A DNA stretch of 64,000 bases from Podarcis pityusensis (Eukaryota): assembly GCA_964106645.2 (NCBI GenBank), contig OZ067045.1; one strand, written 5' to 3'. Positions 7,169 to 64,000 of this stretch are shown here, piece by piece. Positions within the stretch are counted from its first letter, which is position 1. Every line of letters begins with the position of its first letter. Below the pieces are notes generated by a model, which was not told the DNA's origin, ran no database searches, and saw only the letters and a list, made by a program, of their open reading frames with translations. A program made the position numbers and the translations under genes.

Positions 7169-7215
7169 AAACAAACAAACAAACAAACAAACAAACAAAC
7201 AAACAAACAAACAAA
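7169..7215 (+). repeat. (AAAC)n microsatellite
   Basis: Direct reading. Confidence 0.95.
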
Positions 7216-9980: not shown

Positions 9981-10006
9981 GTGTGTGTGTGTGTGTGTGT
10001 GTGTGT
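9981..10006 (+). repeat. (GT)n microsatellite
   Basis: Direct reading. Confidence 0.95.
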
Positions 10007-10552: not shown

Positions 10553-10819
10553 CAGTTGTACCTCAGAAGTCAAACAGAATCTGCTCTGTAAGTCCATTCG
10601 ACTTCTGAAACATTCGACTTCCAAAACGTTCGACTTTCAAAGCGCAGCTTCTGATTGGCTGCAGAAAGTTCCTGCGGCCAATCAGAAGCTGCGGAAGCCC
10701 CATCAGACGTTCGGCTTCCAAAAGAACGTTAAAAAAGTGGAACACTCACTTCTGGTTTTTGATCGTTCAGAAGCTGGAACGTTCGACTCCCAAGGCGTTT
10801 GCGAGCCGAGGTGTGACTG
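10553..10819. mobile_element. Second Tc1/mariner-type MITE family with central hairpin
   Basis: Termini CAGTTGTACCTC / GAGGTGTGACTG; TA on the left (CA on the right); repeated 'ttcgactt'; internal 21-bp arms 10644-10664 / 10672-10692. Confidence 0.75.
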
Positions 10820-10982
10820 CACTGCTCTTCATTCAAGGATCACAGGGCAGCTAACAATATAAAAACTCAAGAATACATAGCACGGTAACAACAAAAGCAA
10901 TACCCCCCTCACTAGTTTAAAAGGCTGTAGATTGACCTTGTAAAGAAACATGCTGGATTAAATCACTCATTGGACCAGAATA

Positions 10983-11207
10983 CAGTGGTACCTTGGGTTA
11001 AGTACTTAATTTGTTCTGGAGGTCTATTCTTAACCTGAAGCACCACTTTAGCTAATGGGGCCTCCTGCTGCTGCTGCACCGCCGGAGCACAATTTCTGTT
11101 CTCATCCTGAAGCAAAGTTCTTAACCCGAGGTAATATTTCTGGATTAGCGGAGTCTGTAACCTGAAGCATATGTAACCTGAAGCGTATGTAACCCGAGGT
11201 ACCACTG
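10983..11207 (+). mobile_element. Tc1/mariner MITE, copy 2
   Basis: Same TIRs as copy 1; TA TSD; lacks one 17-bp unit between 'ttcttaacctga' repeats. Confidence 0.9.
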
Positions 11208-11967
11208 TAGACTCTAGTCTAGGAAGTATTTGTGGGTTGTATGTATGAAGATTGTGTGAGTGCTAAAACTTTGTGATATGCCTAAGACTCTTGCCCTGTA
11301 TGTTTGTCCTCCCTCCCTCCCTCCCTCCCTCTGTGTGTGTGAAATATATGTAACAGCAGTACACAACCACCCTCTTCTGCTGAGCCTCAAACAGGCATTC
11401 AGGAAGAGGAGCAGTGTAAATTCCATTTCTCAAGAGGTTGCTAAGAGCTAGAATTAGCACTCTGAGGCATCCTTCCAGTGCTGCCAGCCAGCAGTAGTTT
11501 GCCCTCTTCCATTCTACCCCCCCCCCCATGAAGCCTTGGGGCAGGGAAGAGCAGGAATGAAGGTAAATGGAATCCCCACAGAAAGGTGACAGACTGTATT
11601 TCAGTATTCAGAATGAAGCTATTCAGATCAACTTGGGAGGTATGGAGTAGTGGCTTGGCCGGAGCTTCAGATTCCCCCAGTGAACCCTTGTTTGACACAG
11701 TCCTTCCTTCTCTCTCTTCTGCTCTCCCCTCTCCTTCCCTCAAAAGCATCTTTGCTTATTCAACAATCCTTCTTTTCTTAACAATAAGCAGTTATAGGCC
11801 TTTTAAAAAAGTAATTGTCTCAGGTCTGCCCTTGAATCTGACTTTAGGAACACCAGTATCTCTCTGGTCCCATTTCTCTAAGGTGCAAGATGTTCATGTG
11901 AAAATAGTGTGGTTGGGTTGCTTGGTAGCAGAATGCTCTCAGATGACCTCTGCTTTCCCCAGAAATA

Positions 11968-12152
11968 GGGGAAGAGCTGTAGCTCAGTGGTAGATCATCT
12001 TCTGCCTTACACACAGAAGGTCCCAGATTCAGTCCCTGGCATCTCCAGGTTGGACTGGGAGAGAAGCCCCTGCCTGAAAATCAAGTCAGTGAAGACAATA
12101 CTGAGCTAGATGGATCAAAGGTCTGACTCAGTATAAAGCAGCTTTCTATGTC
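11968..12152 (+). mobile_element. tRNA-derived SINE (~185 bp, tail ...ggcagcttcctatg type)
   Basis: A box 'tagctcagtggtaga', B box-like 'gattcagtccc'; tail 'ctgagctagatgga..aaggtctgactcagtataaagcagctt'. Confidence 0.8.
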
Positions 12153-15100
12153 TCTGTGTTTGTTCCCAAGTCTTCATTCAACTGGCTCTCTTGCACCTTG
12201 GAAAGACAATGAATATCCATGGATAGGCTACTTGCATGAGCAATCTAACGTCCATCTATTACTTTATTTGTATGCTGCGTTTCCCATAGTTATAACCATG
12301 CTCAAGGCAGCTTAACATTAAAAAATACATAATTACAAACATAAAAAAGTAGTTGTAAACAATAAAACATCAAAACGTACACAACAAAATAGAACAATTT
12401 CCACATAAATCATAAGATCTAGAATAGAGAATAACAGCAACACCCCCAACAAAACTCCCTAAAGTCTGTATGACCAATCTGACCCTGAAGGAAGTGAACC
12501 TATATGGTTTGGGTTTTTTTGCATTTCGAAATCTCAACTCCCAGAAGCTAATCAATTATCTCATAATGATGTAGATCATTATTTTTCTTCCCATTTCATT
12601 GTGGGAAAACCTAGGCTGAGGTTGAATGATGGTCACCCAGCTTTTCTTTGGCTGAACAGTGCTTAGAAATAACTCGGTTTTCACCCAATACACTTTCAGC
12701 CTTACCCTATACATCCAGCAGTGAGGAGCTAGAATGAACTGTACCAATTCAGACTGTAGGTGGGGTGTGTGTGCTATTTTTGAATGCTCCCCCACATTAA
12801 ATAACAATAATAGTATTGCAAGCAGAAAGCTCTGGTGTGTCAGGAAAAAAGGCTCTGTCCCAGCCCACTCCATACTGTGCTAAATTTCTACTTGCAGGGA
12901 ATCCTTCTTGTTTTAAGAGAAGAAAACATTAACAAGAACATTAAAAAGCATTGTTGCAGTTCTAGGACACATCTCAGCTATGTTAAAAGCACCCAAGCAG
13001 GGCCCTGGGGAGCATTCTGAGGGCTAGACGGAGAGCCAGAGGCCAACGGTCCTACCCTTGCTGTAAATGCACCAATTTTGTGGTATGCATCCCAGAAATG
13101 TTATTGTAAACCAGGATGAGTTTTCCCCCTCTAATAGTCAAGTTTTATATGATATACATTTTTTAAAAAAATAGTAGATGCCTCCCAGAGTGGCTGGGAC
13201 AACCCAGTCTGATGGGTGGGGTATAAGAAATACATTATTATTATTATTATGATTATTTATTTATTAAAATACATTGTTCTTCTTGAACATCTGTGACGTT
13301 GGTTAAGGTCATGCTGCTGTTGAGTGGCAAGATGGGCAAAGGCTTGTAAGACTCCTGACTCCAGTCCAGCTGTTTGGTTGGAGTATCCCTAACAAGTCTC
13401 ATGAATTCCTCCTGATGAGAGTTGGCAGTAATCCTGCATTTCAGGATTCTCTGAAGCAACTCCCCCCCCCCCCTTAAATCCAACTACCTTCCATTTGATT
13501 TGGAATGCTATATGTGCTCCAGGGTCGTGGGATCTCTTTGAACCCCCCAGCATTCCTTGGGGCAGATAGCACTGAACAAGAGGGCGGGTGAAACCAATGC
13601 GTTGAGGTCACGTTGTACAAATAGACTGGGGAGCTAAGAGAGTGACCCATTCATGGATGATATATATCTGTGTGGAAAGGGTGCCTGCTTGCTGATGGAA
13701 TGATTCCCCCTGGAATGTCAGGAACATTTATAATTGATGATCTGATGGCTGATTAGCCCCTTTGTGGGGGTTGTGTGTGTATTTAGCACATGGGGGTCCC
13801 AATCCAGAGGGTATGTGTGCCTAGGCTGTGTGCACATAAGCAGGGTTTTAATCTCTCTCCCCTTTTTAAACCAACCCCCCAGAAGTTGTGTTTTTGTTTT
13901 TAAGAGAAGCTTAAAGTTGTGGCTAAAAGGTGAAAAGAAAGAAAAGCTTTTTATTGCAGAGAAGGGCTTTAGTATTTGGGGCAAGGACCTGCTTTTATCT
14001 GTCTGCCCCTTCTCTGGATTGTGTACTTCTTAACATTTTTGAGCTGATTCTGAGCTGTTTTCTGAGTCTGTGGAAGAAGTTGGGTTGGAAGTATCTGATA
14101 ATACTTCTGATAATACTGATAATATGGTGGGGCATTAGATGACAGGAGCACCTGGGCTTGCTTTTTTGGAGGACATTGGGTGAAGCACCGAATAAAATAA
14201 GGCCTCCGGGCTGAGCACAATGTTGGGCAACCAATTGTGAAGACCTTCATGCTTGCAGCTGGCCACAGCCTTTGTTCTTTGAGCCAGATTCCTAGAGAAA
14301 ATGGTCTTGAAAAATCCTCTCGGAGCAGCAGTGCATTTATGTTAGAGTCATGCACACACAGAATCCTCACCCAGAGCCATACGCTTCACCTGTGTATTTG
14401 GCTGCCAAGTCACATTTTTGTGTGTGTGTCTTTCTACCTATACACAGCTGTGTTGCCAGAGGCTGATGGGAGTTGTAGTTCAGAACTATGCAGGGAGCCT
14501 GGTTGGCAAAGGCTGGCCTAGTGAATGACCTGGAATGTCTGTGCACTTCCTTCAGGCATAGTTATGACCCCTTGTGTGCTTCCTTTCCAACATTTTCCTG
14601 TTTATAAACAGTAGCGTCTTGTGGGGCCTTATTTTTATTTATTTATAAAATAAAAGCTGTTGTGGCATGAACTTTTTAATGAGTGAAAAGCCACTTCCCT
14701 GTGTTTTCCACTGTTAACTGCAGCCCTCCCAGCTGTCCCCTTTCCCCACCCCTGGGCAGCACCTGCTCCATTGTCTCCTCAGGGAAGAAGCCATGCCAGA
14801 GATAGCAGCTGCCTGGCCAGGCGTGAATCCCAGGAATTTGGCCATGCTGGAGGAGAGCGGCTGACTCCTCTCGACCTCTGACCCAGCAGGATGATACAAG
14901 CCATCTTCTGTTTCTCTTCAGACTGATTTCTGGGGTCAGCACAACAGCTCTCCCTGTCTCCCTCTCTGCCTGATAAAATGTCTGGAGTCCCCGCCACACA
15001 ATAGATCTGTCAGACTCTTGGCATAAGCTTGGGAGGGAGGAGGGCAGGAGGAGGTGAGAAGAGAGAGCCACGGAGATACAACATTTCCTTCAGAAAATGT

Positions 15101-15201
15101 GCTGGGTGGCAAGGATAGGATCTTAACGGAGGCATCTCCCCCCGCCCTTCCATTTGCTATCAGATGAACTCCCAGAGCTTTTCGTATGGAACGACCATCC
15201 T

Positions 15202-15877
15202 AGGCCACATCTGTACCATTCATTTAAAACATTTTTATACTATTTTAGCAATCATATCTCCCCCCCCCAAAAAAAACAAATAAATCCTGGGAACTGTAAT
15301 TTGTTAAGCGTGCTGAGAGTTGTTAGGAGACTCCCTATCCCCTTCATATAGCTATAATTCCCAGAATCTCTGGAGTTTGTAGCTCTGTGAGAGAAATAGG
15401 GATCTCTTAACAGCTCCCGGCATGCTTAGCCAAACTGTAGTTCCCAGAATTATTTGGGGAAAGTCATGACTGTTAAAGTGATATGCTTTAAACTATGGTG
15501 CAGTAGGGACGCGGGTGGTGCTGTGGTCTAAACCACAGAGCCTAGGGTTTGCTGATCCGAAGGTTGGCGGTTTGAATCCTCGCGACGGGGTGAGCTCCCG
15601 TTGCTGGGTCCCAGCTCCTCCCCACCTAGCAGTTCAAAAGCGCGTCAAAGTGCAAGTAGATAAATAGGTACCGCTCCAGCGGGAAGGTAAACGGCGTTTC
15701 CGTGCGCTGCTCTGGTTCGCCAGAAGTGGCGTAGTCATGCTGGCCACATGACCCGGAAGCTGTACGCCGGCTCCCTCGGCCAATAAAGCAAGATGAGCGC
15801 CGCAACCCCAGAGTCGTCTGCGACTAGACCTAATGGTCAAGGGTACCTTTACCTTTTTATGGTGCTATATGGTCATA
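15202..15877. mobile_element. Palindromic PIF/Harbinger-like MITE whose right TIR is interrupted by a Sauria SINE
   Basis: Left end 'aggccacatctgtacca'; internal inversion 'aatcctgggaactgta' / 'tagttcccagaatt'; right end 'tatggtgc[SINE]tatggtgctatatggtc'; related copies at 25580, 45215 and 58121. Confidence 0.65.
15506..15857 (+). mobile_element. Sauria SINE, full length
   Basis: 5' GGGACGCGGGTGG.GCTG tRNA-like head, CpG-rich body, 'gtgcaagtagataaataggtacc' core and (ACCTTT)n tail; flanking duplication TATGGTGC at 15494 and 15858. Confidence 0.9.
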
Positions 15878-15982
15878 GCTTCTCTCTTTCTCCTCTCCTG
15901 TTTCTCTCTCCCCCATACCCACTCCACCTATAGCAAGATTGGAGCACAGAGCATTGGACCCCAGATTTTGCTGTCTAGGCTT

Positions 15983-16553
15983 CATGAAGTCTCCTTTGCT
16001 TTGGAACTGTCTGGAAAAAGCTTATTACTGTATTAGTCTCCAGTGTTAAGATCACACTGTGGGTGCACAGTTGTTACTCCAAGCAACTGACATTCAGAGA
16101 CATACTGCCTCCAACACTGGAGATAGAATATAGCCATCATGGCTAGTAGCCATTGACACCCTCCATGAATTCCCATGAATTTCACATGCTGGAAATTATT
16201 TTGAAAGTGAAATTTTGCAGAAAAGTGCACACTTTTCAGTATATTTATTTATTAAATTTATAGCCCAACCTTTCCTCCCAAAGGAGTCCACAGAACATGA
16301 CTTCCTTTTGCACCCCTTTGTCCCCCAAAGCTATGATCTAGCTGCAGCCGAACCAGGTAGGGGGTGAATTTGTGGATTCCATATTCTGAAACTATAGCTC
16401 CAGGCGTATTTGTTTGATTTTTATCATCTTGTTCAGTGTTCCAAGCACAGGGGCAACCCCTACCAGAGCTTTGACCTGTGATCTTAACACTGGAGACAAA
16501 TAAGCTTTTTCAGACAGTTGGAGGTGGTTTGAAAAGCAAGGTGACTGTTCATG
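15983..16553. repeat. Long-range inverted repeat (~75-bp arms, 420-bp spacer)
   Basis: Perfect 21-bp core 16036-16056 / 16477-16497, plus further matching blocks outward. Confidence 0.85.
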
Positions 16554-17044
16554 GTAAATAGTTTTCTTTTCCATCTTTCCAGCTTTTCCTGCTTTTTTTT
16601 TATTTAAAAAATTTGCTTGGTCAGATGCAATCTTGGGACAAAATTAATGCTTGTGCAGCTGTGGAGAGTAGTGTGTTGCTCAAATTGCCGTCAGCTCCCT
16701 TGGAAATTCATTGTTTGTTTCTGACCTTGCAGCTCTAGCCTAGTCAAAGATGGAGGAAGAGAGCAGAGCCTAGTGCAAAGGTGTTTGGGAGAATGGCTAT
16801 GCAGAATCAAGTGGTCATAGACCCCCCTCAGAGACTTTTTCTGGTGGGCCAGGAAAGTCTGTGCTAGCGGAGGAGAAAATGGCTTGATGAATGGAGATTC
16901 TCATTTGTAAGCAAAGACAGTGCCTAGTTAGGAGCTCAGACACTTGAGTTGTTAAAGCATTCTTTGCCAACCTGGTGCCCTTCAGATGTTGTTGGGACTC
17001 CCACCTGCCTCCATCTATTACAATTAGCCATGCTGGCCATGGCT

Positions 17045-26670: not shown

Positions 26671-28433
26671 AAGTAATGGTTTTTAGTAACACCCCTTGCC
26701 CTAGATGCTTAAGATGCTGACTATGGTGTTCATGCAGTCTGAACAGACAGAACCCAAGTTAAAGGCAAACAAATGTATTTTGAAGCTAGACTGTTTCTAC
26801 CAACTGCTCCATGTCCCTCTCTGCTTTAAAGAGCAGCAAGCATCCCTTTCAAAAGTTGGATGGTTGCAGTGTCTGCAAATAGCTGAATCTAAGTCCAAAT
26901 ATGGGGGTGTTGGTGATGCCTGCCTTTATCTTTCTGGCTAACTCTTGTACAATGCTATTAGCCCTTCTCTGAACCCACTTGTGTGACTTGTTTCGTTGGC
27001 TGGCTGGAGGTCAGAGTAGATCTGTACAGATCAGGTTTCAGTTGCAACAGGGTTACATATAGAGGGTCAAAGATGGAACGGAGTCAAGCATTGAACAATG
27101 ACCTGGATCAGGAAAGAGGCTTTTGTGCAGGGTGGTGGCTAGAGGAGATAAAGGATGTACATCTATTGCTGCAGCATCTGGAGTCGTTGCCAGTTGCTCC
27201 AGCAAGGCTCTGTTTGTCCCCCACCACAGCATTCCCTGCCTGGCTGTGTGAGAGAAGCCCCCTTGAGCAAAAGACTTACTTTCCTGCCATGACGCCTGCT
27301 GATTTTTCCATTGTCTGTAAGCAGATAGGGTTAACATTCCCCAGGGAAGGCAGGGCCTCTGGAGACTCGCTGCAGTCCAGCAATGAATGGTGCCTTTTTA
27401 ATACTCCATCCTTCAATCCTTATCTCTCCTAATTTATTGGACGTAACTGGTGGCGCTGATGGATCCACAGCTCAGACCTTGGCTTCTAAATTTCAGCATT
27501 AATAATCTCAGCCTTCAGCCAGCTCTCCAGATGTCTTTGATTTAGCTGCTCACTCGGGAGGGGTGCAACCCCGTGTCCCTGGTGCCAGCGTTAATGTGGC
27601 CTGCTGACAATATATTTGGGCTTGGAATTGCATTTCCCTGATGAATTAATTCGCCTCTTAGTGACTGTCCCTCCCTCTGTCCTCCTCCCTTCTTAGCTGG
27701 GGTCAGATGTTCTAATGAATGGGGTCAGGAACAACTCGTTGCCTTCCTGCCCTATCCTCTCATTCTGCCCTCCTCCTCCCCAAGTGAGAAAGGGGAAATT
27801 TATCTGGCACTGTGAGTGAGTGAGAGACAGACAGACAGACACACAGGCACAGAGAGAAGCAAATAACTTGCTTAATCTTCCATCAGCTTTGAACTGTTGT
27901 GCTAGGGCACTCCATATTGGAAGGCCCCTAGTAGGGAATAGTAATCAAGAAATCTTTACCAGTTGCTTTGTGTGCTCCTGGCTGTTCCCGTTCTGCAAAA
28001 AATAGCCCAAGCACCATGGTGGTGCCTGCCTCCCCATCAGTGCCTAAACACAGGAAGCTGCTTTTTTTTAAAAAAATTTTTTTAAAAATAATCTTTATTA
28101 AAATTTCAAAGGAAAAAAAAATCACATTAGTAAAAAAAAAATTAACAATGAAAAGGAAAAATACAAAGTAGAAAAAAAGAAAAAGCAGTTAAAAACAATT
28201 CCATCCTTTCCTCACTTCTTTTACGTTTACTTGTTTCCCGGACCTCCTCATACCTCCCTCATTTGTATTCCAATTAAATTTGTTAATCCAACAATTCCTT
28301 TCCCTCCTTTTTAATCCTAATCTTTAATTTTGATATATTATAACTTTAAATTTTTACATATTAAAAACCAATTTTTCCATATTCTTTTGTACCTGTACAG
28401 CTAGAAACCACTTAACTTCAATCCAACATCATT

Positions 28434-28613
28434 CTAACATTCATTAATTTTGCAATATTTCTGTAAATAGTCTTTAAATTTCTTCCAATCTTCTTCCACC
28501 GACTCTTCTCCCTGGTCACGGATTCTGCCAGTCATTTCCGCCAATTCCATGTAGTCCATCATTTTCATCTGCCATTCCTCCAGTGTGGGTAGATCTTGTG
28601 TCTTCCAATGCTT
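28434..28613 (-). pseudogene. L1 ORF2 C-terminal 59 codons (KHWKTQDLPTLEEWQMK...CKINEC*)
   Basis: Aligns with KYWKTQELPTLEEWQMK...CKIKEC* at the end of ORF 59435..61534. Confidence 0.9.
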
Positions 28614-28614
28614 T

Positions 28615-29375
28615 TCTCCACTTTTGACTGTTGTATTTCCAAAGTCTTCTGGAAATGCAGGCTCAAATTTTTATCTCTCTCTTCTTTTGTTCGGAGGGTG
28701 ATCAAACAGTCTCTCACCCTGTTCTTTCTCCCTCCTTTTCCAAGTCTAAAAGCACTCACTATCTTGAAACTGTCTTTCCCCAAATCTGGGTTCCAAAAGT
28801 CTAGGAATTCCTGCGTAAGAAATTCAATCAAATTGTCTTTCTCCACTTCAGGTACAGCCCTGACCCTTAAATTCACTTGTTTCTCCTTCAACTCGATCAT
28901 AGACAGAATTGACTTATGGTCTTCAAGTTGTTTATGTAGCGGTGGTATCTTCTCTTGAACCACTGTAGCAGTAGCAGTAGCAATTTCTTTAGCCTCTTCG
29001 GCTGTCTTACGTGTCGAAGCAGATTCCTATAATAATTTCTGAATAGTTTCTGTATTAGTATTTACTTTCTGTCCCAAATTATTGATACTTGTCGTATTTT
29101 GATTAATACTTGTCGTATTTTGATCAATCTTATCCGATGCCTCGGCTACTTGTTTACTTATTCTATCCAAAGATTCATTAATTTTAGCTAATGCCTGAGC
29201 CAGGGCATCGTCAGCTGCCATACCTTTGGGTTTAGGTTGTGCCGATGAGGTTGCTGTTGGAACTCCAGGGGGGGCCAGATGTCGAAGCCCTTCTTTGCAG
29301 TCCACCGTCTGTACGAAATACTCTGCCAGACCTCGTTGCTTGTAACGAATCTATCTTCTCTTTCCCATCTGCCAT
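28615..29375 (-). pseudogene. L1 ORF1, disrupted and C-terminally truncated
   Basis: ATG 29375 (MADGKEKIDSLQATRSGR); apparent +1 frameshift in the C7 run near 29270; TAG at 29027-29029 where the intact copy has GAG; matches ORF1 of the 63-64 kb copy. Confidence 0.85.
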
Positions 29376-30029
29376 AACCCTCAAGATATAACCCAAGGTC
29401 AGTCACACAGTCAGAGTCAGAGTTGTTTTGAAATGGAAAATTCCCTTAGGAAATTGTAGTGGAAAATTCCCTCAGGCCAGCTGCAATTGTAACAAATTCA
29501 AACTTCCTCTAGGGGGACACTGTAACAGTCATAAAAGTCTTAAAGTAGTTAACCTCTCCCTTTAGTCCCCCAATTCACCAGAAAGACAACAGTTTCTATC
29601 TCAGTCTGTTACTTTAAAACCAGGAGATACCTGTCAGCAATATTGTAACCAAGTTGTATCTCGGATGCAGAGTTAACTGTCAAAGAGTGCTTTCAGAGAC
29701 AGCGCAGTTTCTAATACGGCTTCTTACTGTCACTGGGAACCCGTTCTGGGGTTTTAAGCGGTGGTTTTTGTCTCCTCTTCCTCTCTTTTTTCAGGGAAAT
29801 AACATTCAAACCTTCTCCCCCCTCCTCCCCTGCATCAAGGGGGGGAAATCACAGTTTTGATGCTCGAATTATAATCCTTTTCCAACGTCTTTTAAAGCTT
29901 CCGCTTTCAAGTTCAATGCTTTACTCTGTTTACAAGAGCGGGAGGCAGACTTCCTGTTTATACCTCTCCGCTTCGGTGCCGAATTATTCAAGATTTTGTA
30001 CAGTTCCTTTAATTGAGAAGTTAGCCTAC

Positions 30030-30359
30030 TCACGGATCGTTGTTTCAAAGCCAAATTGTCCCATGAAAAAGGCAGCGCTCTCCGGTAACAGCTGCGTGGC
30101 TTCACTCCACGGAAGAAGCAGACGACTCACAGCACAGCGCCACTTCCCCGCTCTGCTCCGGAGCCCGTTGCCGGGTTCCTTTGCTGATTGGGGGGGCGCA
30201 AACAGTGCCTGCCGAGTCCCACGGTCACAGGCTTCACCCGCCTGTGATTTGAAGGGTCCCCGCTGCGCCGTAGCGGTACAGACCCGATTTCCGTGGAGCC
30301 AGTTCCCTCCAGATCAGAGGGAATCTGCCATTACCGATGGCGCCACCTCCGGAAGTCCT
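30030..30359 (-). promoter_or_regulatory. CpG-rich L1 internal promoter
   Basis: Dense CpG; ETS motif ACTTCCGG at the 5' terminus; YY1-like ATGGC/GCCAT motifs; hairpin ttccctc..gagggaa. Confidence 0.65.
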
Positions 30360-33071
30360 CTAAACACAGGAAGCTGCTGCACAGCAGGTCAAGACTGTTT
30401 GTCCATGTACTCTGGTTTCGTGTGTTATAACTGGCAGCAGCTCTCCAAGGTCTGAGGGAGATAAGGGTCTGTTCTACCTGCTCTTCCTTCCTTTTAACTG
30501 GGGAGACCGGGGGTTCACCTTGGGACCTTCTGCATGCAAAGCAGGTGCATTCTGCATTCTGTAATTCAGGCATGAGTTTTATTTATTTATTATGGTGGTG
30601 GAGGGGCATGATCTGGACAGGGGTGTGTTTTGATCCCTGGAGCTCAAGCTACTTTGGCAGGGAACTGCAGGAGAACAAACTAGATTGTTGGGAACTGTTG
30701 CTTCAGTATTCGAGTGACAAATTCTAGGGCTCTTGCAGATGTTTTGGACTGTAGTTCCCATTCAGCACAGCTGGGAATTGTGGTCCAAAATATCTGGAAA
30801 GAATCTGGTTGGCAAAAGCTGACCTAATTAGAGACCTGAATACACTGTGTATTGATTTGCCTGTTTTGCAAAACTTAGCCTGCTCCTGCTGAGCTCCTAA
30901 AAGCCCTGATCAAATAGGAGCTGGAAGTTTCTGAAACAACCCCAAAAACCTGTTGGACCAGAACTAATGGTGCCCTGCATCATGGGCCACAATTACCGGT
31001 ACTTCATTGCTCTGTCTTCTAGAAACTTTTGCACTGCTGCTCCACTGGACAAACCTTTCAGCCTATAGAGCCCTGCAAACAACTACACCAGCATTTGATA
31101 CTGGCTTGTCTGCTGGTGCATGCCAATAAGGGTTACTGGAGGGGCACATCAACAACCCTCTTTCAAAAAAGAATCTCTTGCTTAGTCCAACTGACACCTA
31201 CATCCCTGACCTTGCTCACAGTGAATGCAATTTTGAGTCTATTTTAAAGGTCATTTACAATACTGGTCTTCATTGGCATCACGAGCAAGACCCAGCCGAT
31301 CCACGACTCTGCTTATGGTTCAGAGGAGCTATTTAAAGCCAAGGGAAATAATTGACTTGCTTTTCCTGTTGCACTTTGAAATCCTCTTTCTCCCTTTTTT
31401 TCCCTTTAAAGATGGTTAAAATCAGAAAAATTGACCTTCTTCCAAGTAGTTCCTTGCACAAGCCTGGCTGCAGTCTTAAAATAATCAGTGGATCAGCCAG
31501 GGCTGTCTGGGGGAGCAGAAGTGGGTTGCAGCCAGTAGATGTCCTTAGTCAGAGTGGCTGAGATTAGGAATGGCTTGTTTTCCTACAAGCTCTTATTTTT
31601 CCATAAAAAGGAGACACTAAGGCCTTGTTCAGTTGTTGCTGGCCATCCATTGTAATAGGGGTTATTATCCAGATAATTGGCACGTGGTGATAGATGGCAA
31701 TGCAGAGGTAAGGAAAATTAGGCTGGGCAGATTTTAAATTTTTTATTCCAGCCTTTGATTCACTGGACTTTCTTCACTTGAACACTGGCCTCCCCTTGAT
31801 GAAGAACTCAAATTCCCGTTGCAGTTTCTACCAAAATCTTTAATGCTCAGATCAGTGTGATACATAGGCAAAACACAGCAGGTGCTACACATATCTACAC
31901 AGAGACATTGATCCAGCAACAACACCTCCCTTACAAGCCTGTTATAAGTGATTTGGGTGGACACAACTTAGTGGAGCAAGGCGTTCTGATCCCTAGTGCT
32001 ATTTTTCTAGAAAAAGAAGTGTGGGAGCTCACCATTAGTGCATGCCTTGTTCTCTTCTAATGGCAAAGGCGCCCACCTGAGAGGTGCCGGAGCTTGAGTT
32101 CCAGCAAGTTCCAGCTGAAAAAAAGCCCTGGGTAGACAACCTGGTATTTCTCTGAGAAGGCTGAACCTGCCCTGTCTGTCCGTGCCTACTCTGGGGTCTC
32201 ATTAACCTAGGAGAAGGAGGGTACACCACTGCCTCTACAGGGCAGCAACCTCCCCTGGAGAGGGAGGATTAGATGTGATTTCTGACAACCCTAGAGGTGG
32301 AGTTGGTGGTGCAATAGGCAAACTGGCCAAACCAGAGCCAGCCTCCCAACAGCTCCAGAGTGGGCACTGAAGCCCATGCATCGTACTGTGGGAAATGGTG
32401 GCAACAAGGGAATCCCCTCTCCAGGATTCTCTTCCCCAGGGCTCTCCCAACACAGGCAGAGACCTTCCCAGTCTACTGGATCCCTTCCTGGGGTCTGCCA
32501 CTCGTGTTTTCTGTCCTGGCTTGACCAGCCCCCTCCCCAAGTCTATGACAAGGAGCACTAAGTGCGCAGAGGCGCCCTGATAAAGGGCCGAGTGGGCCCT
32601 ATTCTGGTAACATTTACATGAATAAACTGTTTAAGGGAATGGGCATATACTTGTTTAAAGAGAAGACAGCACTTGGGCTGCCTTTGGACGGGGTCAGTGG
32701 GGGGATATTGTGCAAGTGTTGCTGGGTTTATTGCTAACTCTCCCCTCCGCCCCAATTTATAACTACATTTTGTGATATGGAACTGTGCCTTTGTGATGGA
32801 TATACCATGGTTTCCTACATAATTTTGTTCACACCAGTGGGTGTGGTATGGCACAACTGTGGACATCATTGGACATGTCTACAGTACTACCATCCTCCCT
32901 CTACCCCATATCTTTTCCCTGTGATCCTGTGTGCAGTTTTGAAAAACTTATTTCCAGCTAAATAAGTGTATCTCATTGAAAGAAGGAAATAGTGGTAGCC
33001 TTCCATTTCAGTGTATCAATCAAAAATGGAAACTCACACTCTTTCCAACCTGTTTGTAGAAAGGTGCATGT

Positions 33072-40707: not shown

Positions 40708-41846
40708 TAGAATCATAGAATCATAGAATCATAGAATCATAGAGTTGGAAGAGACCACAAGGGCCATCGAGTCCAACCCCCTGCCAAGCAGGAACACCAT
40801 CAGAGCACTCCTGACATATGGTTGTCAAGCCTCTGCTTAAAGACCTCCAAAGAAGGAGACTCCACCACACTCCTTGGCAGCAAATTCCACTGTTGAACAG
40901 CTCTTACTGTCAGGAAGTTCTTCCTAATGTTTAGGTGGAATCTTCTTTCTTGTAGTTTGGATCCATTGCTCCGTGTCCGCTTCTCTGGAGCAGCAGAAAA
41001 CAACCTTTCTCCCTCCTCTATGTGACATCCTTTTATATATTTGAACATGGCTATCATATCACCCCTTAACCTCCTCTTCTCCAGGCTAAACATGCCCAGC
41101 TCTCTTAGCCGTTCCTCATAAGGCATCGTTTCCAGGCCTTTGACCATTTTGGTTGCCCTCCTCTGGACACGTTCCAGTTTGTCAATGTCCTTCTTGAACT
41201 GTGGTGCCCAGAACTGGACACAGTACTCCAGGTGAGGTCTAACCAGAGCAGAATATAGTGGCACTATTACTTCCCTTGATCTAGATGCTATACTCCTATT
41301 GATGCAGCCCAGAATTGCATTGGCTTTTTTAGCTGCCGCGTCACACTGTTGGCTCATGTCAAGTTTGTGGTCAACCAAGACTCCTAGATCCTTTTCACAT
41401 GTACTGCTCTCAAGCCAGGTGTCCCCCATCTTGTATTTGTGCCTCTCATTTTTTTTGCCCAAGTGCAATACTTTACATTTCTCCCTGTTAAAATTCATCT
41501 TGTTTGTTTTGGCCCAGTTCTCTAATCTGTCAAGGTCGTTTTGAAGTGTGATCCTGTCCTCTGGGGTGTTAGCCACCCCTCCCAATTTGGTGTCATCTGC
41601 AAATTTGATCAGGATGCCCTTGAGTCCATCATCCAAGTCGTTGATAAAGATGTTGAATAAGACCGGGCCCAAGACAGAACCCTGTGGCACCCCACTAGTC
41701 ACTCTTCTCCAGGATGAAGAGGAACCATTGATGAGCACCCTTTGGGTTCGGTCAGTCAGCCAGTTACAAATCCACTGAGTGGTAGCATAGTCAAGACTGC
41801 ATTTTACCAGCTTCTTTGCTACCACTCAGTGGATTTGTAACTGGCT
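40708..41846 (-). mobile_element. Young 5'-truncated CR1 LINE with fold-back inversion at its 5' end
   Basis: (ATTCTATG)4 tail at 40708-40739; short 3' UTR; open RT frame; 30-bp inverted copy at 41817-41846. Confidence 0.95.
40800..41819 (-). pseudogene. CR1 ORF2 C-terminal fragment (reverse transcriptase), uninterrupted
   Basis: [54 protein letters not shown] and LEKRRLRGD motifs typical of CR1. Confidence 0.95.
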
Positions 41847-47975: not shown

Positions 47976-48228
47976 AGTGTTGTAGTGTCTGGTTATATGG
48001 TGAAATTTTATTTATTTATTTTCTTTGTGGTTCATTTTTATTCACACTGCTTTTAAATGCTAATTAAGCAGGGTAGAAATGTTTTAAATAAAATTAATAA
48101 ATAAATAACATAAACCACTGGATTTAATTATTTCCAAGTGTTTCTATTGCAGCCTTAATAGAAGAAAAACAGTCATTACTAAAAATAGAAGAAAAATAGT
48201 CTTTACCCAAAGTTGGACCGTGATTATA

Positions 48229-48470
48229 CAGTGGTACCTCGGGTTACATATGCTTCAGGTTACATATGCTTCAGATTACAGAGTCCGCTAACCCAGAAAT
48301 AATACCTTGGGTTAAGAACTTTGCTTCAGGATGAGAACAAAAATCGTGTGGTGGCGGCGCGACAGCAGCGGGAGGCCCCATTAGCTAAAGTGGTGCTTCA
48401 GGTTAAGAACAGTTTCAGGTTAAGAATGGACCTCCGGAACGAATTAAGTACGTAACCAGAGGTACCACTG
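48229..48470 (-). mobile_element. Tc1/mariner MITE, copy 3 (inverted relative to copies 1 and 2)
   Basis: TIR CAGTGGTACCTC; TA TSD at 48227-28 and 48471-72. Confidence 0.9.
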
Positions 48471-50847
48471 TAGTTGTAAATTTATAACTCTGTGGTCTAG
48501 AAACAACCTTCAGTAGCAAGCTGTGAGGGCGGGTCTTTGAGTCCCCTTGACATTCCTTGCATACCATTCTGGAATAACAGCTGCAGGACCCTTTTGATTA
48601 CATAAACCTGTCTGGTGATAGAAAAGGCTTCTAATTCATTTGCAAGTGCTGTGAAATCCAGTGTTGGGATCCACTGGGCACATGCAGTGTACCTTTCTTC
48701 CACCATTTGCACACTTGAAGCCTAATACATCCGTCGTCAACCACGACCTCATTTGTGTGTGTTTGTCCTTGTGGGCCCCTGCACTGCCATCGTCTGTTGG
48801 GATGGGAGGTGGGGAGGTTACGTGCAAATTTCATTACACCATTTGCTAGCGATCAATACAGTTAAATTCCTGCTTCCCGGGCCCTGGCGGTTTCCCCTTT
48901 CACGTCAGCATCCGAGGGAACAATTGATGGATCTGAGTCTGGTAAGAGCATAAATCTGAGCCTGCCACAGCTTTTAGAGTGCTTGTCTTGGTGACATATT
49001 TGGTTTGTTTGAATGTCTAGCTGTGGGGGAAATCAATCACCTGGCTCTGTTCCTCACATGCCCCCCACCCCTGGCTTCATTTTAATTTGCTGGTCTGTGG
49101 GTTGCATATACCAAGTATTCGTCTATATTTGAATCAGGCAGACAGGGTCTCTCCTCTTAATAAATCCTGCCCAACAGGCCTCCTTCATTCAGTGTTCTTC
49201 GTACTCCTGGCCTGCCCTGAAAATTTACACAGCCACTAGCTCACATGTTGCAAAATCCTTTTAGGGTGACTTCCTCACTCGCTCACAACAAAATGTGATT
49301 CCAAATTAGGATTACCTAATTACCTGGGTTACTTTCTTTGCGAGGGGCAAAGAACATGATGGATGCCCCTTTAGTTCTGGACACAATCAGAGCCACAGGT
49401 GTCCACTCTGAATTCAAATCTGGAAGGTGTTTAGAAGCTGCATATAAGCAGAAGGTGCCTGAAGCAGTTCTAGTGAAGTTGATCAAACAACAGTAGATGA
49501 CCAATTTCTGAGAATTTCTACCCAGTTGAGCCAATCTGTTGCTGGAGCCACAGTTACATCTCTTCCCTGCTTTTCAGTGGCTGAAGTTAGTGGCGGAAGT
49601 CAGTGGCTGAAGTTTAGAGAGCCCACTAAGCTAGTTCTCATTCCTCAGACCAATAAGTTTCTGAATCAGGCTCTGGAGACTCTTGACACCATGGCCCCAA
49701 GGTACCCCTTCTTGGTTTTGAGATAGCACACCTACCTTCAGTGATACTACTTCTGTCCACATGGATTTCTTGAAGCTCATTGTGTTTGAACAGGAGGAGC
49801 ATGTTTCTTCTCTGTGCTACATCCAGGAAGGGTTAGAATTTATGATTTGGTCTAGGGAGTCCTGTGTTTACACACACCTGCCCTCTGAAGCTCACTGGGT
49901 AATCATGGGCTGGTTGTGCTCTTGCCTTCCCACTTCCAGCCTAACCCACCTCGCAGGGTTGTTGAGAGGATAAAATGAGGATGGAGTGGGAGATAATTCA
50001 TTTATTTCAGGTGTCTGTCCCTGCCTTTTCACATCCCTTACACACGTGTGTGTGGATGTGCACACACAAGTACACATATAGCTCTTCTGAAGGTAGCTAT
50101 TTCATTTACCCTCTGTCATCTGCTAGAAATTACACCAGCAACCCCCTCCCCTGCTGTGCACATAGACTTGGTGGGGATGGGGGTAATAGTGCATCCCCAG
50201 CCCCTTTGCCTACACAGAGCACAAGGCTCTGGCAGCCTTCATCTTTGCCTCCTACCTCCCTGCTCTCCCCTCCAGACGATTTCTCTGACAGAAGCTGACA
50301 AGAATCATTTCCAAGATGGATTGATTCAATTTAGCACCATTTTTTCCCTCTGCTAGGATTTGGTGATGTACGGCTCCCCAGCCAGAGCTGCCTTCCATGT
50401 GAGTCCTCATCCACTGGGTTTTCTTAGCAACACACTTACCATTGCTGGATATGGTGGGCAGGCCCAGATAATTGGGTTTGCATATGGCAAGGAAGCCTCA
50501 TGAGCCACTGGTCGTAACCCACCACTGCTTAGATTGAAGGGTGGAGGCACCAATGCATGTATTTTTGCATCCCCGAGGGCTTAAATACTATATTGGCTAC
50601 TTTGCCCATGCTGACCCTTCCACCTAAATGTTGCATTTCTAGACTGTTTCTCTCTCTTACAGTTTTGTAGAACTGGCTTCTCTTTTCCACAGACCTCCAC
50701 CAATGTGGACTAGTGCAGTGCAGCAGTAGCTACACTTGTGTACAATGGTACCGTAATTCTGGTGTATTCCTTATTCTGCATTTGTGATAATTTCTATGCA
50801 CCAACAGTAGACTACAAAGCCCATGTTGAACTGAGCGAGCATGTTGA

Positions 50848-58926: not shown

Positions 58927-59434
58927 CTCCAAACTGAGCCTTCTGGCTTTGCAGAAGTCCCCCACACCATCTTGAAAAAGGGAATACTTCTAAAGCCTAT
59001 CCTTTCTGAAGAACCAGCATTTGTTTTTTTTTTTAAATAATTTTTATTAAAGTTTAAAACAACATAAAACAAAAAAAACAGAAAAACTCACATAAAAATA
59101 ATACAAAACTTAACAATAAAAACACAAAACACAACAATTAAAAACAAACTCTCTTTTCCATTTCCAATTTTACATGACTTATTTTCTAGACTTCCTCAAA
59201 CCTCCCTCCTTTGTATTCCAGTCCACATTGTTTGTTCAGCAGTTTCTTTTCCACTTTTTTTTAATCCCAATCTTTAATTTAGTAAAATGTTAAAATATAT
59301 AACTTCAATTTTTTTTTTAAACCTAGTCCTTGGTCTTAATATCATATAACTTTAAAGTTTTCCCTTTTAATATCAAATTTCCATAACTTTAACCTGTGCA
59401 GCTGGAAACCACTTGTTTTCAGTCCAACATCACT

Positions 59435-62400
59435 CTAACATTCCTTAATTTTGCAGTGTTTCTGAAGATAGTCTTTGAATTTCTTCCAGTCTTCCTCCAT
59501 CGACTCTTCTCCCTGGTCACGGATTCTACCAGTCATTTCAGCCAGTTCCATATAGTCCATAAGTTTCATCTGCCATTCCTCCAGCGTGGGAAGTTCTTGT
59601 GTCTTCCAATACTTTGCGATAAGTATTCTTGCTGCTGTTGTTGTTGCATACATAAAGAAAGTTCTATCCTTTTTTAACACCATTTGGCCGACTATGCCCA
59701 GGAGAAAGGCCTCTGGTTTCTTAGGGAAGGTATATTTAAATACCTTTTTTAATTCATTATATATCATTTCCCAGAAAGCCTTAATCTTTGGGCACGTCCA
59801 CCAAAGGTGAAAAAATGTACCTTCAATTTCTTTACATTTCCAACATTTGTTATCGGGCAAGTGATAGATTTTCGCAAGCTTGACTGGGGTTATGTACCAC
59901 CTGTATATCATTTTCATAATATTCTCTCTTAAGGCATTACATGCCGTAAATTTCATACCTGTGGTCCACAACTGTTCCCAGTCAGCAAACATAATGTTAT
60001 GTCCTACGTCCTGTGCCCATTTAATCATAGCCGATTTTACCGTTTCATCTTGAGTATTCCATTTCAGCAGCAAGTTATACATTCTTGACAAATTCTTAGT
60101 ATTGGGTTCTAACAATTCTGTTTCTAATTTTGATTTTTCCACCTGGAAGCCAATTTTCCTGTCCAATTTAAATACCTCCATTATTTGACAATAATGAAGC
60201 CAGTCTCGCACTTTGTTTTTTAGTTTTTCAAAACTCTGCAATTTCAGTCTATCTCCGTCTTGTTCCAAAATTTCCCAATATTTCGGCCATTTGACCTCCA
60301 TATTGACCCTTTTCAAGGCTTTCGCTTCCATTGGTGACAGCCACCTTGGGGTTTTATTTTCTAGCAAATCCTTATATCTTATCCAAACATTAAATAGCGC
60401 TTTCCTGACAATGTGGTTTTTAAATGCTTTGTGTGCTTTGACCTTATCATACCATAAATATGCATGCCATCCAAATACATTATTAAAACCTTCCAAGTCC
60501 AAAATGTCAGTGTTTTCAAGAAGTAGCCATTCTTTCAACCAGCAAAAAGCTGCTGATTCATAATAAAGTTTGAGGTCTGGCAGGGCAAATCCACCTCTTT
60601 CCTTTGCATCTGTTAGTATTTTAAATTTTATTCTGGGTTTCTTGCCCTGCCAGACAAATTTAGAAATATCTTTCTGCCACCTCTTGAAACAGTCCATTTT
60701 GTCCACAATCTGCAAAGTTTGAAACAAAAACAACATTCTAGGCAATACATTCATTTTTATCGCAGCAATACGGCCTAGCAGTGAAAGCTTCAAATTTGAC
60801 CAAATTTCTAAATCTTTTTTCACTTCTGACCAACATTTTTCATAGTTATCCTTAAATAAGTTCCCATTTTTTGCTGTCATGTTAATCCCCAGGTATTTAA
60901 CTTTCTTAACCACTGTTAAACCTGTCTCATTCTGAAACCTCTCTCTTTCAAACGGTGTTAAGTTTTTCTCTAGAACCTTGGTTTTTAATTTGTTCAATTT
61001 AAATCCTGCCACTTGACCAAATTCTTGAATCAGTTCTAAAACTCTTTTAGTACTAGATTCTGGCTCTTGTAACGTCAATACTAAGTCATCTGCAAATGCT
61101 CTCAATTTATAGTGTTTAGTTCCGACCTGTATACCTTTAACCATCTGGTCCCTTCTAATCATATTCAGCAACACCTCCAGGACCGAAATAAAAAGAAGAG
61201 GGGAAATTGGGCAACCTTGTCGTGTCCCTTTTTCAATTTTAAGTTCTTCCGTCACAACGTTATTTACAATTAGTTTAGCCTTTTGTTCTGAATAAATTGC
61301 ACTTATACCATTCTCAAAACCTTGGCCTACCCCCATACCCTGAAGATTCTTCTTCATAAAATTCCAAGAAATATTGTCAAAGGCTTTCTCCGCGTCTACG
61401 AATATCAACACTGCTTTAGTGTTTATATTCACTTCTAGTTTTTCCAAAATATCAATTATATTCCTCAAATTATCAGACAAATGTCTTCCTGGGAGAAAGC
61501 CCGCTTGGTCTTTATGAATCTCTTCCAACAGCACTTTTTAAAATCTCTTCGCCAAAATATCTGCAAAAATTTTGTAATCCACATTGAGTAATGATATAGG
61601 GCGGTAGTTCTTTAGTTGTGTCTTTTCAGCCTCTGGTTTTGGTACAAGTGTAATATATGCTTCTTTCCACGACTCTGGTGCCCTCCTCCCCTCCATTATT
61701 TCGTTACAGACCTCTTTCAATGGTTGAATTAGCCATTCTTTTAAAGATCTGTAGTATCTAGAGGTCAAGCCATCTGGTCCTGGAGATTTACCCAGTTGCA
61801 TGTTTTGAATGGCACCTTCTATTTCCTGTTCCGTTATTCTGTCATTCAAAATTAGTCTCTTTTCTTGAGATATTTTTTGTAGTCCATTTGTTTTCAAAAA
61901 TTGGTCTAAGTCTGTTTCTTTCACTGGCCCTTGAGTGTATAGTCTTTTAAAATACTTCTGGAAACAACTTCTAATCTCTGCAGGGTTCTGTATATTCCTT
62001 CCTTCCACTTCTAAATTCGTAATCGTATTTAATTTTTGTCTCTTTTTCATTTGCCATGCCAACAATTTACCACATTTATTGGCCGATTCAAAAGTCTTTT
62101 GTCTCATTTGTTTAATTTTCCATTCTATTTCCTGATTCATTATTTTCATATATTGTACTTGATATAACTTTAACTCTCTCAAGATCTCTTGAGATTTGGG
62201 ATTTACTCGCAATCTTTTTTCACATTCATTCATTTTGTTCATAATTTTATCCTTCTTCTCATTTTGAGTTCTTTTCTTTATCGCATTCTGTTGTATTAAG
62301 AACCCTCTCATAACAGCTTTACTTGCATCCCAGATTACTCTTTTCTCCATGTTGGAACTAAGATTTATCTCTAAGTAGTCTCTTAGAGTTTTTTGGGCCT

Positions 62401-63175
62401 TCTTAAGAAATTCTTCATCTCTAAATAAGGTGTCATTCATCTTCCATCTGAAGGAGCCAGTTGGTATTAGTCTCATTTCCATCTTAACAACGTTATGGTC
62501 GGAGCAAATTTTCGGGCAGATTTCCACCTTTCTTGTCTTTGGTGCCATTCCTCTAGTTATCCAAATTTGGTCAATTCTTGTCCAAGTCATTTTGGCTTCA
62601 GAAAAGAAAGTTCCCTCTTTTGCCAAGGGGTTTCTAATTCTCCAAATATCCACTAAGTCCAAGTTGTCTGTCATGTCAAAAAAGGTTTTCGGTAGTCTAC
62701 CATCTTTGGTGACTACCTGTCTTTGTGCCTTGTCCATGTAAGTAGATACCACTCCATTCATATCTCCCATCAAAATTATGTTGTAATCCATATGGTCCAT
62801 CAAGGTCTCATGCAACTTCTTAAAAAAATCAGATTTCCCGTCATTTGGTGCGTAAACTCCTACAATCAAAAATTTTTCTCCTTGTGTTTGAATTTCAATT
62901 GCCACAAATCTTCCTTGGTCATCCTTAAAAACAAATTTTGGTGATAAATTGTCTTTTGCGTAAATCACAACCCCTCTCTTTTTAACTTTATCTGACGAAA
63001 TAAATTCCTGACCAAGTCTTTTATTTATCAACAATTTCCTGTGTAATCTTGTTATATGTGTTTCTTGTAAGCAAATTAGGTCTAATTGTTCCTTTTTTAA
63101 TATATGAAATACTGACTTCCTCTTCTGAGGGGAATTCAAACCCCGGCAGTTCCATGTTAAAAGTTGCAGGGCCAT
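59435..63175 (-). CDS. L1 ORF2p (APE endonuclease, reverse transcriptase, CCHC knuckle); one in-frame TAA at 61538-61540
   Basis: EN: TWNCRGLN, LQETH, VYAPN, GDMN, RID, SDH; RT: DAEKAFD, GTRQGCPISPLLF, FADD, KYLGI; CWKC..H....C. The 545-aa and 699-aa ORFs are in the same frame. Confidence 0.95.
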
Positions 63176-63179
63176 GATG

Positions 63180-64000
63180 TTATTGTTTTAGATCTCCTCC
63201 TACTGCACCTAGTGCCTGTTCCTCATCCGTCGGTGGTATCCCTTCTTTCGAACGGTCTTTTGGTTCCGGAAATAGTTCTTTTTGTAAGTCTTCTCCGTGG
63301 TCCCTGTAAAATTTATCTTTATCGTCTTCCGATCTTATTTTCCTCTTCTTTCCCTTGTAACTAAAAGACAGGCCTTGAGGGAGTTCCCACCTGAAATCGA
63401 TGTTGTTCCTTCTCAGCAGGATAACCAGGTCTTTGTATTTTGATCTGAGATCCAGAAGATATTTCGGAATATCTTTGAATATTTCCACCGTTGTCCGATG
63501 GATTTCCAGTGTCTTCTTGAAATGTAGGCCCAAAATCTTATCCCTCTCTTCTTTTGTTCGAAAAGTAATCAGGCAGTCTCTCACCTTCTTCTCTCCTCTT
63601 CTCCCAAGTCTAAAAGTATTTACTATTCTGAAACTGTCTTTTGCCAGTTCTGGGTCCCAAAAGTCCAAAAATTCCTGCGTGAGAAATTCAGCTAAATTGT
63701 CCTTTTCCACCTCAGGTACTGATCTGACCCGAAGAGTCACTTGCTTCTCCTTCAAATCTATCATAGACAGAGTTAGTTTGTGGTCTTCCAATTGTTTATG
63801 CAGTGTTGGTAATTCCTCTTGAACCTCCTTAACATCCGTAGCAGAAATTGTAGCAATTTCTTTAGCCTCTTCAGCAATCTGGCGAATTGAGGCCGATTCC
63901 TCTAATAATTTCTGAATAGTCTCTGTATTAGTATTTACTTTTTGGCCCAAATTATTTATACTTGCTGTATTCTGGTTAATACATGCTGTATTCTGATTAA
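63180..64000 (-). CDS. L1 ORF1p (coiled coil, RRM, CTD), N-terminus outside the window
   Basis: Open to the edge (NQNTACINQNTASINNLGQK...); heptad-rich N-terminal part, TLRVRSVPE RRM entry; directly upstream of ORF2. Confidence 0.9.
   Translation of the reverse strand, partial: NQNTACINQNTASINNLGQKVNTNTETIQKLLEESASIRQIAEEAKEIATISATDVKEVQEELPTLHKQLEDHKLTLSMIDLKEKQVTLRVRSVPEVEKDNLAEFLTQEFLDFWDPELAKDSFRIVNTFRLGRRGEKKVRDCLITFRTKEERDKILGLHFKKTLEIHRTTVEIFKDIPKYLLDLRSKYKDLVILLRRNNIDFRWELPQGLSFSYKGKKRKIRSEDDKDKFYRDHGEDLQKELFPEPKDRSKEGIPPTDEEQALGAVGGDLKQ

Follow-up and report, generated by a model that had tools for sequence, protein, structure and literature searches.

A 2.3-kb lizard L1 without its middle is probably a single dead insertion

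Does an L1 element that keeps both of its ends but has lost its middle belong to a non-autonomous family, or is it one copy that was damaged during or after insertion? The question is raised by a deleted L1 of 2297 nt on the minus strand (30359-28063) of a 64-kb stretch of wall-lizard DNA (hereafter the window), in which the element lies between perfect 19-bp target-site duplications (TSDs; Table 1). A long L1 copy in the same window serves for comparison.

Table 1. Coordinates in the window of the deleted L1, its parts and the long L1 copy
Feature	Position	Strand	Basis or remark
5' copy of the 19-bp TSD	30360..30378	-	sequence; single copy at the empty site of organism C (record 25)
Full L1 5' UTR, 984 nt	29376..30359	-	sequence; family contig depth ends at about 30360
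GACTTCCGG terminal motif	30357-30349	-	match to start of lizard clade-1 L1 consensus
CpG island in 5' UTR	about 29960-30359	-	CpG count
ORF1, first 253 codons (761 nt), ATG at 29375-29373	28615..29375	-	sequence and protein matches
Deletion junction ORF1/ORF2, blunt	28614..28615	-	replaces 3866 nt (long-copy 59616-63481)
ORF2 3' end after the zinc knuckle: final 59 codons plus stop	28434..28614	-	alignment to long copy and P0013
3' UTR, AATAAA (28099-28094) and T5-A7-T7-A7 tail	28063..28433	-	sequence
3' copy of the 19-bp TSD	28044..28062	-	sequence
Long L1 copy, sister subfamily, comparison only	59021..64000	-	5' end outside window
Long-copy ORF1 (to 63180), 4-nt spacer, then ORF2 with EN and RT	63175-59435 (ORF2)	-	

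Both ends of the element are preserved. From its third base onwards it carries GACTTCCGG, which matches the beginning of the clade-1 L1 consensus for lizards in the available text of PMC5381506, the remainder of which matches only partially. The first 400 nt contain 27 CpG (observed/expected ratios of 0.76 and 0.98, the window as a whole having 0.21), and in run X1 the contig depth of the family drops from about 52,000 (30298-30395) to about 300 (30396-30493). Terminal motif, CpG ratios and this edge in depth bear out the first-pass annotation, which had described a full 5' end with a CpG-rich promoter-like region; the 3' UTR, polyadenylation signal and A-rich tail that it listed are all present as well. 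The ORF2 tail is identical to the long copy at 162 of 181 nt and shows 95% identity to P0013. ORF1 matches no Pfam family at the curated cut-off, and was identified from protein hits and position. A search for a host gene gave no Pfam hit among the 150 stop-to-stop frames scanned out of 494 (17.8-36.8 kb).

The target site provides evidence on the age of the insertion. The 19-mer is identical at both ends (19 of 19 nt) and occurs nowhere else in the window. In organism C (run X8, record 25), 28043 is directly followed by 30360 in one contig, which contains the TSD once, as the pre-insertion site, so that the perfect duplication reported earlier is confirmed. The site is probably empty in organism B too, a conclusion drawn from record ends, with no listed joint: record 24 begins at 30360 with 54 unplaced letters, and would overlap records 17/18 by 30. 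The 5' junction is present in both organism A runs (X1 and X2), with no difference in 350 nt, in contigs that extend only 29 nt into the element (the bridging rule being 31 nt). These comparisons cover 4 of 23 sequencing runs, all as assembled contigs. As the site is empty in C and probably in B, and both A samples have the 5' junction, the insertion is real and young; one related species with the empty site has flanks that differ by about 1%. An L1 sequence with a complete 5' end thus entered this site, creating a 19-bp duplication and leaving an A-rich tail. The deduced nick (TGCT/GC) is not of the TTTT/AA-like type that is the rule for human L1 (PMC2912911), but this mismatch weakens the claim of an L1 insertion little, as the rule is a human one and the preference of lizard L1 endonuclease may differ.

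What the element has lost can be read from BLAST alignments to the long copy, in which 28617-29127 matches 63484-64000 (79%), 28308-28614 matches 59314-59615 (84%) and 28077-28330 matches 59026-59280 (70%). These pieces agree with the missing middle as first annotated, which comprises the ORF1 C-terminus, EN, RT and the zinc knuckle. ORF1 is cut at codon 253, with its last ~100 codons gone, and is joined bluntly and out of frame to the ORF2 tail at 28615/28614. We found neither microhomology nor GT-AG at this join. An AAAG common to ORF1 and ORF2 of the long copy was rejected as its cause, being located 5 nt beyond the ORF1 break. Since microhomology is also absent from 54% of breakpoint pairs drawn at random from the long copy, the blunt join is little guide to mechanism. 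Undeleted relatives are found on both sides: in all four runs, contigs on the ORF2 side depart from the window at 28614 and continue as undeleted ORF2 (10, 6, 13 and 10 contigs), and the closest ORF1, P0001 of Podarcis lilfordi (93%), continues beyond the breakpoint.

ORF1 carries two further lesions, both upstream of the junction, namely a one-base frameshift in a run of seven G (29268-29274) and a TAG stop (29029-29027). They had been missed in the first-pass annotation, which was correct on the truncation and on the out-of-frame join. Contigs of the family lack one base at 29267/8, that is, the extra base of the element, which fits decay of this particular copy. As judged from its letters, the element makes no working protein.

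Only one copy of the junction came to light. In the window, the single match is the element itself, and six junction-spanning peptides are absent from the 75 proteins retrieved, all of them annotated gene models. As protein searches reach such models only, and 3 of the 11 ORF1 protein hits named Podarcis, this blank is weak. In metagenome contigs, the junction pattern and a control pattern from the ORF2 tail both gave no match; this collection thus holds no usable lizard L1, and the blank for the junction means nothing. Similarly, among the pieces listed in four runs none bridges 28615; as the runs hold 20,882 pieces and 1,263 loose ends beyond those listed, and as contigs lose rare variants, this is no evidence of absence. 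At 53 nt upstream of the junction, contig depths add up to 629, 1558, 2315 and 962 (6-30 on the flanks). These sums do not measure copy number; taken as an order of magnitude only, they are compatible with tens to a few hundred copies, counting undeleted ones, but not with thousands. Organism A contigs contain 66-69% of the query's words. By a rough reckoning, the element is about 2% from the A contigs retained, against roughly 0.5% expected since the split from B/C, a distance that could reflect either a diverged source copy or the dropping of rare variants from contigs. Of the 35 element positions shown, four (28668, 29554, 29804 and 30064) have a letter in the window that occurs in no X1 or X2 contig, so that no retained sister shares these letters.

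Taken with the lesions above, these results make it probable that the element is a single dead insertion of a lizard clade-1-type L1 with an internal deletion of its own, of 3.87 kb, made during or after insertion; we infer that the deletion happened once. The first-pass annotation had offered a one-off deletion or an undescribed L1-parasitic family, of which the former stands and the latter is without support, the junction having no second copy in the window or in the 75 proteins. Tentatively, the middle may have been lost during insertion: in the course of target-primed reverse transcription, ORF2p would have copied the last 552 nt, come off its template and restarted about 3.9 kb further upstream, either on that L1 RNA or on another one; alternatively, a broken RNA or cDNA would have been end-joined. 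Slightly less likely is that a full-length copy was inserted first and that end-joining repair later removed its middle, the shorter allele being kept. L1 copies are described as decaying by internal deletion in the available part of PMC5872511, frequent large deletions in a lizard are cited in that of PMC3381678, and the clades with ORF-less bipartite families named in that of PMC5786205 do not include L1. The doubled T/A tail and the target unlike TTTT/AA are points against this reading, which does not explain them. A point against a dead end is that all the cis parts for a second round are present: as the promoter-like 5' end and the poly(A) signal are kept, the element could, on these features of its sequence, be transcribed and mobilised in trans.

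The alternative that survives best, although we regard it as unlikely, is a young, low-copy non-autonomous family in wall lizards, in which a deleted source, transcribed from its 5' UTR, would have given rise to several ORF-less bipartite L1 copies (SIDEs) moved in trans by ORF1p and ORF2p of autonomous L1. Such a family would agree with the full set of cis parts and the clean TSD, with the low word share in organism A, and with the two ORF1 lesions of so young an insertion, which a dead source could explain. Moreover, low-copy SIDEs, down to 12 copies, are known from other LINE clades (PMC6740152, in the portion available), and the genus has full-length records of ORF2 (P0018, P0021 and P0023). 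Against it stand the lack of a second junction and the four positions without the window's letter in X1 or X2, as well as the preference of L1 for its own RNA, defective L1 RNA being mobilised in trans at a low level according to the accessible text of PMC5860796. The long copy, previously suggested as a near-intact potential helper, does not fill that role either: it belongs to another subfamily (ORF1 79% identical to that of the element in DNA and 72% in protein), and its ORF2 has an in-frame stop at codon 546 (61540-61538), before the RT domain. Trans-mobilisation works via RNA, so that the 30 kb between the element and the long copy mean nothing. Among candidate partners, the closest ORF2 records are partial (P0013, 438 aa), and the full-length ones show 71-78% over the tail.

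An assembly artefact or an allele of the source individual, that is, a full-length L1 whose middle was collapsed or deleted on one haplotype, is improbable. Both A runs show the 5' edge and neither shows the deletion, and at 28668, which is 53 nt from the junction, the window's letter is missing from all X1 and X2 contigs; however, this missing letter proves nothing, as rare variants drop from contigs, and the window is free of N and the join has no common repeat to invite collapse. A private deletion allele would, moreover, remain a one-off event.

Least credible of all is an origin through RNA, either as an L1 transcript that was spliced and then retrotransposed in trans (SpIRE-like) or as a U6/L1-like chimera of a premature 5' L1 RNA and a 3' L1 fragment: in gene models P0012, P0019, P0026 and P0031 the ORF2 tail is fused to other sequence 1-9 codons upstream of the junction (a hint, from protein models only, of a cryptic acceptor), an AATACA hexamer ends 17 nt before the junction, and blunt RNA joins are known (PMC6789731, in the part available), but the removed part neither starts with GT or GC on the ORF1 side nor ends with AG, as judged from long-copy DNA, the P0001 protein and loose ends rather than from parent DNA, which led us to reject splicing. 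The join also has no A tract, and premature polyadenylation was rejected because, by chance, 23% of long-copy positions have a poly(A)-like hexamer 10-30 nt before them.

As a single deleted copy, the element matters little beyond serving as a clean presence/absence marker that separates wall-lizard lineages and as an illustration of reptile L1 shrinkage. A family would matter more. Searches of a literature collection with few subscription journals gave no publication on a bipartite non-autonomous L1 from lizards. The available passages of PMC5786205 and PMC6740152 give RTE, Ingi, Vingi, R2 and CR1 as sources of bipartite elements and name L1 only for the ORF1-coding HAL1; a bipartite family, if true, would thus add L1 to these sources, and would imply that lizard L1 RNA needs the promoter and the last ~550 nt for trans-mobilisation. 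Should the junction recur elsewhere, it would reveal an L1 parasite that encodes no protein and has an RNA polymerase II promoter, which those passages do not list for L1, and would provide, in a reptile, a natural map of the cis-acting signals that trans-mobilisation requires.

Among known systems, the lizard clade-1 L1s (Boissinot & Sookdeo 2016; PMC5381506, in the text available) likewise have a long 5' UTR, the GACTTCCGG terminus and a CpG island and, to judge from the long copy, a near-zero spacer between ORF1 and ORF2 (4 nt) and EN and RT in ORF2. In contrast to them, the element has neither the ORF1 C-terminus nor EN, RT and zinc knuckle, and its 5' UTR of 984 nt has one clear CpG island, compared with two islands in an average of 1.3 kb in Anolis; its probable placement in clade 1 comes from anatomy. 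With HAL1 (accessible parts of PMC5753468 and PMC5786205), the element shares L1 5' UTR and ORF1 sequence, the 3' end and the absence of RT. However, HAL1 encodes ORF1p and is multi-copy, whereas the element, known from one copy, has an ORF1 that is cut at codon 253, frameshifted and stopped, and is therefore not HAL1-like; the first-pass annotation had rightly set it apart, as a complete open ORF1 is absent.

ORF-less bipartite LINEs and SIDEs (RIME, NARTc, Vingi derivatives, Bov-A, the R2 SIDE and Persaeus) arose through the same joining of 5' and 3' parts by internal deletion, and the element has the structure that defines a SIDE (5' and 3' parts of one LINE, no intact ORF). In the sources as available, these are repeated families derived from RTE, Ingi, Vingi, R2 or CR1, whereas the element derives from L1 and is single so far. 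Persaeus, for example, is about 260-320 nt long and arose from a 5-bp microhomology, while the element is 2.3 kb long with a blunt join. SpIREs, in the available part of PMC5860796, are also 5'-complete, internally deleted L1 insertions that are dead on arrival, but their junctions lie at splice sites in the 5' UTR or ORF1, unlike that of the element. Finally, the internally deleted, decayed L1s described in the accessible portions of PMC5872511 and PMC3381678 have the same kept ends and TSD, lost middle and dead ORFs, and from these the element shows no difference of kind.

The element is an L1-type insertion with target site duplications (TSDs) and a tail, from which 3866 nt of internal sequence have been lost at a blunt junction. 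Its structure, as described in the first-pass annotation, was borne out for the TSD 19-mers (no third occurrence of which was found anywhere in the window), the 5' end, the join between ORF1 and the ORF2 tail, and the 3866-nt gap. Aligned with the long L1 copy of the same window, the element falls into three pieces (79%, 84% and 70% identity), and the missing sequence corresponds to 59616-63481 of that copy. This covers the last ~100 ORF1 codons, the endonuclease (PF03372) and the reverse transcriptase (PF00078), both Pfam matches in the long copy, and a cysteine-histidine knuckle recognised in the translated sequence. In both copies, the part of ORF1 that encodes the coiled coil contains 21-bp tandem units, one heptad each (29081-29128 and 63954-64000).

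Features of the deleted L1 element and of the long L1 copy
Feature	Position or length	Strand	Remarks
Element	30359 to 28063, 2297 nt	minus	between the two 19-mers
Target site duplications	28044-28062 and 30360-30378		identical 19-mers
5' UTR of element	984 nt
ORF1 part of element	761 nt, ATG 29375-29373	minus
Deletion junction of element	28615/28614		ORF1 joined to ORF2 tail
ORF2 tail of element	last 59 codons + stop
3' UTR of element	371 nt		contains AATAAA and T5-A7-T7-A7 tail
Long L1, sister subfamily	59021-64000	minus	ORF1 open to window edge; ORF2 open but for one stop

The 5' end is complete: L1 family contig depth drops sharply just past 30360, the first 400 nt hold 27 CpG (o/e 0.76-0.98 vs 0.21 window-wide), and the terminal GACTTCCGG matches how the lizard clade-1 consensus begins in the available part of PMC5381506. 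Clade 1 is also resembled in the long UTR of the element and in the long copy's spacer of 4 nt between ORF1 and ORF2, a placement by anatomy rather than by tree. The closest named proteins come from Podarcis (ORF1, 93% to P0001 of Podarcis lilfordi; ORF2 tail, 95% to P0013, a partial record of 438 aa). Contig depth in X1/X2, the two runs of organism A, is 36,000-159,000 over the first ~350 nt (30004-30395) vs 800-17,000 across the inner UTR and the greater part of ORF1. In the portion of PMC5381506 consulted, conservation among clade-1 families is highest in the first ~120 nt, which may account for this depth, as might a separate abundant element sharing the L1 5' end. Among the 15 joints listed (of 34), none is a 5'-to-3' joint. 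One X2 contig (record 11, 29375-29531), which has a depth of 62 and differs at 1 of 157 nt, departs from the element at 29531 and is a very close sister copy, 5'-truncated or rearranged there. A little upstream of the L1 5' end lies a piece of an abundant short repeat (30440-30590, depth about 6,000-15,000), which shares a 19-mer with 56639 and may be a tRNA-derived SINE.

Contigs from four of 23 sequencing runs (X1, X2, X3 and X8) were compared with the window, and show that the insertion is real and young. In organism C (X8), a single contig spans 27854-28043 and 30360-30548 unbroken, with one target copy, i.e. an empty site. In organism B (X3), a contig starts at 30360 and its 54 unplaced letters would overlap left-flank contigs by 30 nt, from which we infer an empty site as well. 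In both runs of organism A, the right-flank contig enters the L1 by 29 nt (just short of the 31-nt bridging rule) with no difference over 350 nt, at the 5' edge only. Flanks differ from the window by 3/321 nt in B (record 24) and 6/541 nt in C, so that in all likelihood the insertion is younger than a split of ~1%.

The coding capacity of the element is gone. ORF1, which starts at the first ATG according to P0001, carries one extra base in a G7 run (29268-29274), absent from family contigs (7 in X1, 8 in X2, 4 in X3), and a TAG (29029-29027).

The likely explanation is a single deletion in one L1 copy, which may have occurred during insertion or, somewhat more doubtfully, later. At insertion, the reverse transcriptase would have released after a 552-nt 3' piece and resumed upstream. 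This length weakly suggests release at a usual point, being near the median of uninverted human somatic L1 inserts (503 bp, in the part available of 10.1101/2024.08.27.596794); unlike here, the internal deletions described in that part accompany 5' inversions and have a median of 14.5 bp. After insertion, the copy would have lost its middle by internal deletion, a form of L1 decay treated in accessible sections of PMC5872511; part of PMC3381678 cites a report that such losses, when large, are common in a lizard. The tail (28063-28088) is a doubled T/A unit in L1 sense, at a guess from slippage or fold-back during priming, and the putative nick is TGCT/GC, not the TTTT/AA of the human L1 rule.

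A low-copy family moved in trans, with the same structure at several loci, is unproven and less likely than such a one-off deletion; we regard it as unlikely. Counted against a single dead copy are the retention of every cis part, the presence of two ORF1 lesions already in a young element, the odd tail and target site, and the fact that the organism A runs contain just 66-69% of the query's words, which may reflect a diverged source. The window contains no second junction (the one match is the element itself), and six junction peptides match 0/75 proteins, all 52 representative hits included; both tests are weak. Summed contig depth at 28668, which is not copy number and is usable as an order of magnitude only, is 629, 1558, 2315 and 962 in the four runs vs 6-30 on the flanks; this argues against thousands of copies and permits a number in the tens or low hundreds. 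Of the 35 element positions listed, from a table with a further 220 rows, 4 have the window's letter in no X1/X2 contig, the pattern that a solitary copy in decay should give when contigs omit its variants.

An assembly artefact or a private allele is improbable, and a spliced or ligated RNA slightly more so. Contigs exit the window at 28614 into undeleted ORF2 in all four runs (10, 6, 13 and 10 among those listed), which fixes the 3' break, and the P0001 ORF1 extends beyond the 5' break. On the evidence of these contigs, P0001 and the long copy, the two sides meet bluntly, and neither microhomology nor filler nor splice dinucleotides are present. Such an outcome is the commonest by chance (54% of 20,000 random breakpoint pairs), and thus counts against splicing and homology-led switching, yet gives no date. 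Two Podarcis gene models (P0011 and P0012) join the ORF1 N-terminus in frame with ORF2 at two other points, that of P0012 lying ~7 codons upstream of the element's 3' break. These fusions may reflect either additional deletions of independent origin or introns introduced by gene prediction, the latter favoured because P0019, P0026 and P0031 join non-L1 sequence close to the same place, and were counted for neither side. Joins near one place in the ORF2 tail may hint at a cryptic splice acceptor.

The long copy, proposed at first as a near-intact helper, does not sustain that role. It is probably a young near-full-length L1. It carries an in-frame stop at ORF2 codon 546 (61540-61538), ahead of most of the reverse transcriptase, and in its present state cannot supply ORF2p; its promoter falls outside the window. 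With only 79% DNA and 72% protein identity to the element in ORF1, it belongs to a sister subfamily. The nearness of a helper has no bearing on trans-mobilisation, and full-length ORF2 records are present in Podarcis (P0018, P0021 and P0023). Elsewhere in the window are a ~250-nt repeat in three copies (7738-7988, 10981-11211 and 48227-48475; 84-91% alike), each with terminal 16-bp tandem units, and a 232-aa open frame (40800-41498, minus strand), presumably resembling the C-terminal part of CR1 ORF2.

We found no account of a non-autonomous bipartite L1 in lizards in the literature searched, mostly without subscription journals. HAL1 elements are defined by an ORF1p-coding frame in the available text of PMC5753468 and PMC5786205; given its frameshift and TAG, the element lacks this defining feature. 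ORF-less bipartite LINEs are alike in shape, whereas the repetition that defines such families is so far theirs only. The sources named for them are RTE, Ingi, Vingi and R2 (PMC5786205, in part), with CR1 added in part of PMC6740152, so that an L1-derived family would be of specialist interest. In its behaviour, the element resembles a decayed or dead-on-arrival L1.
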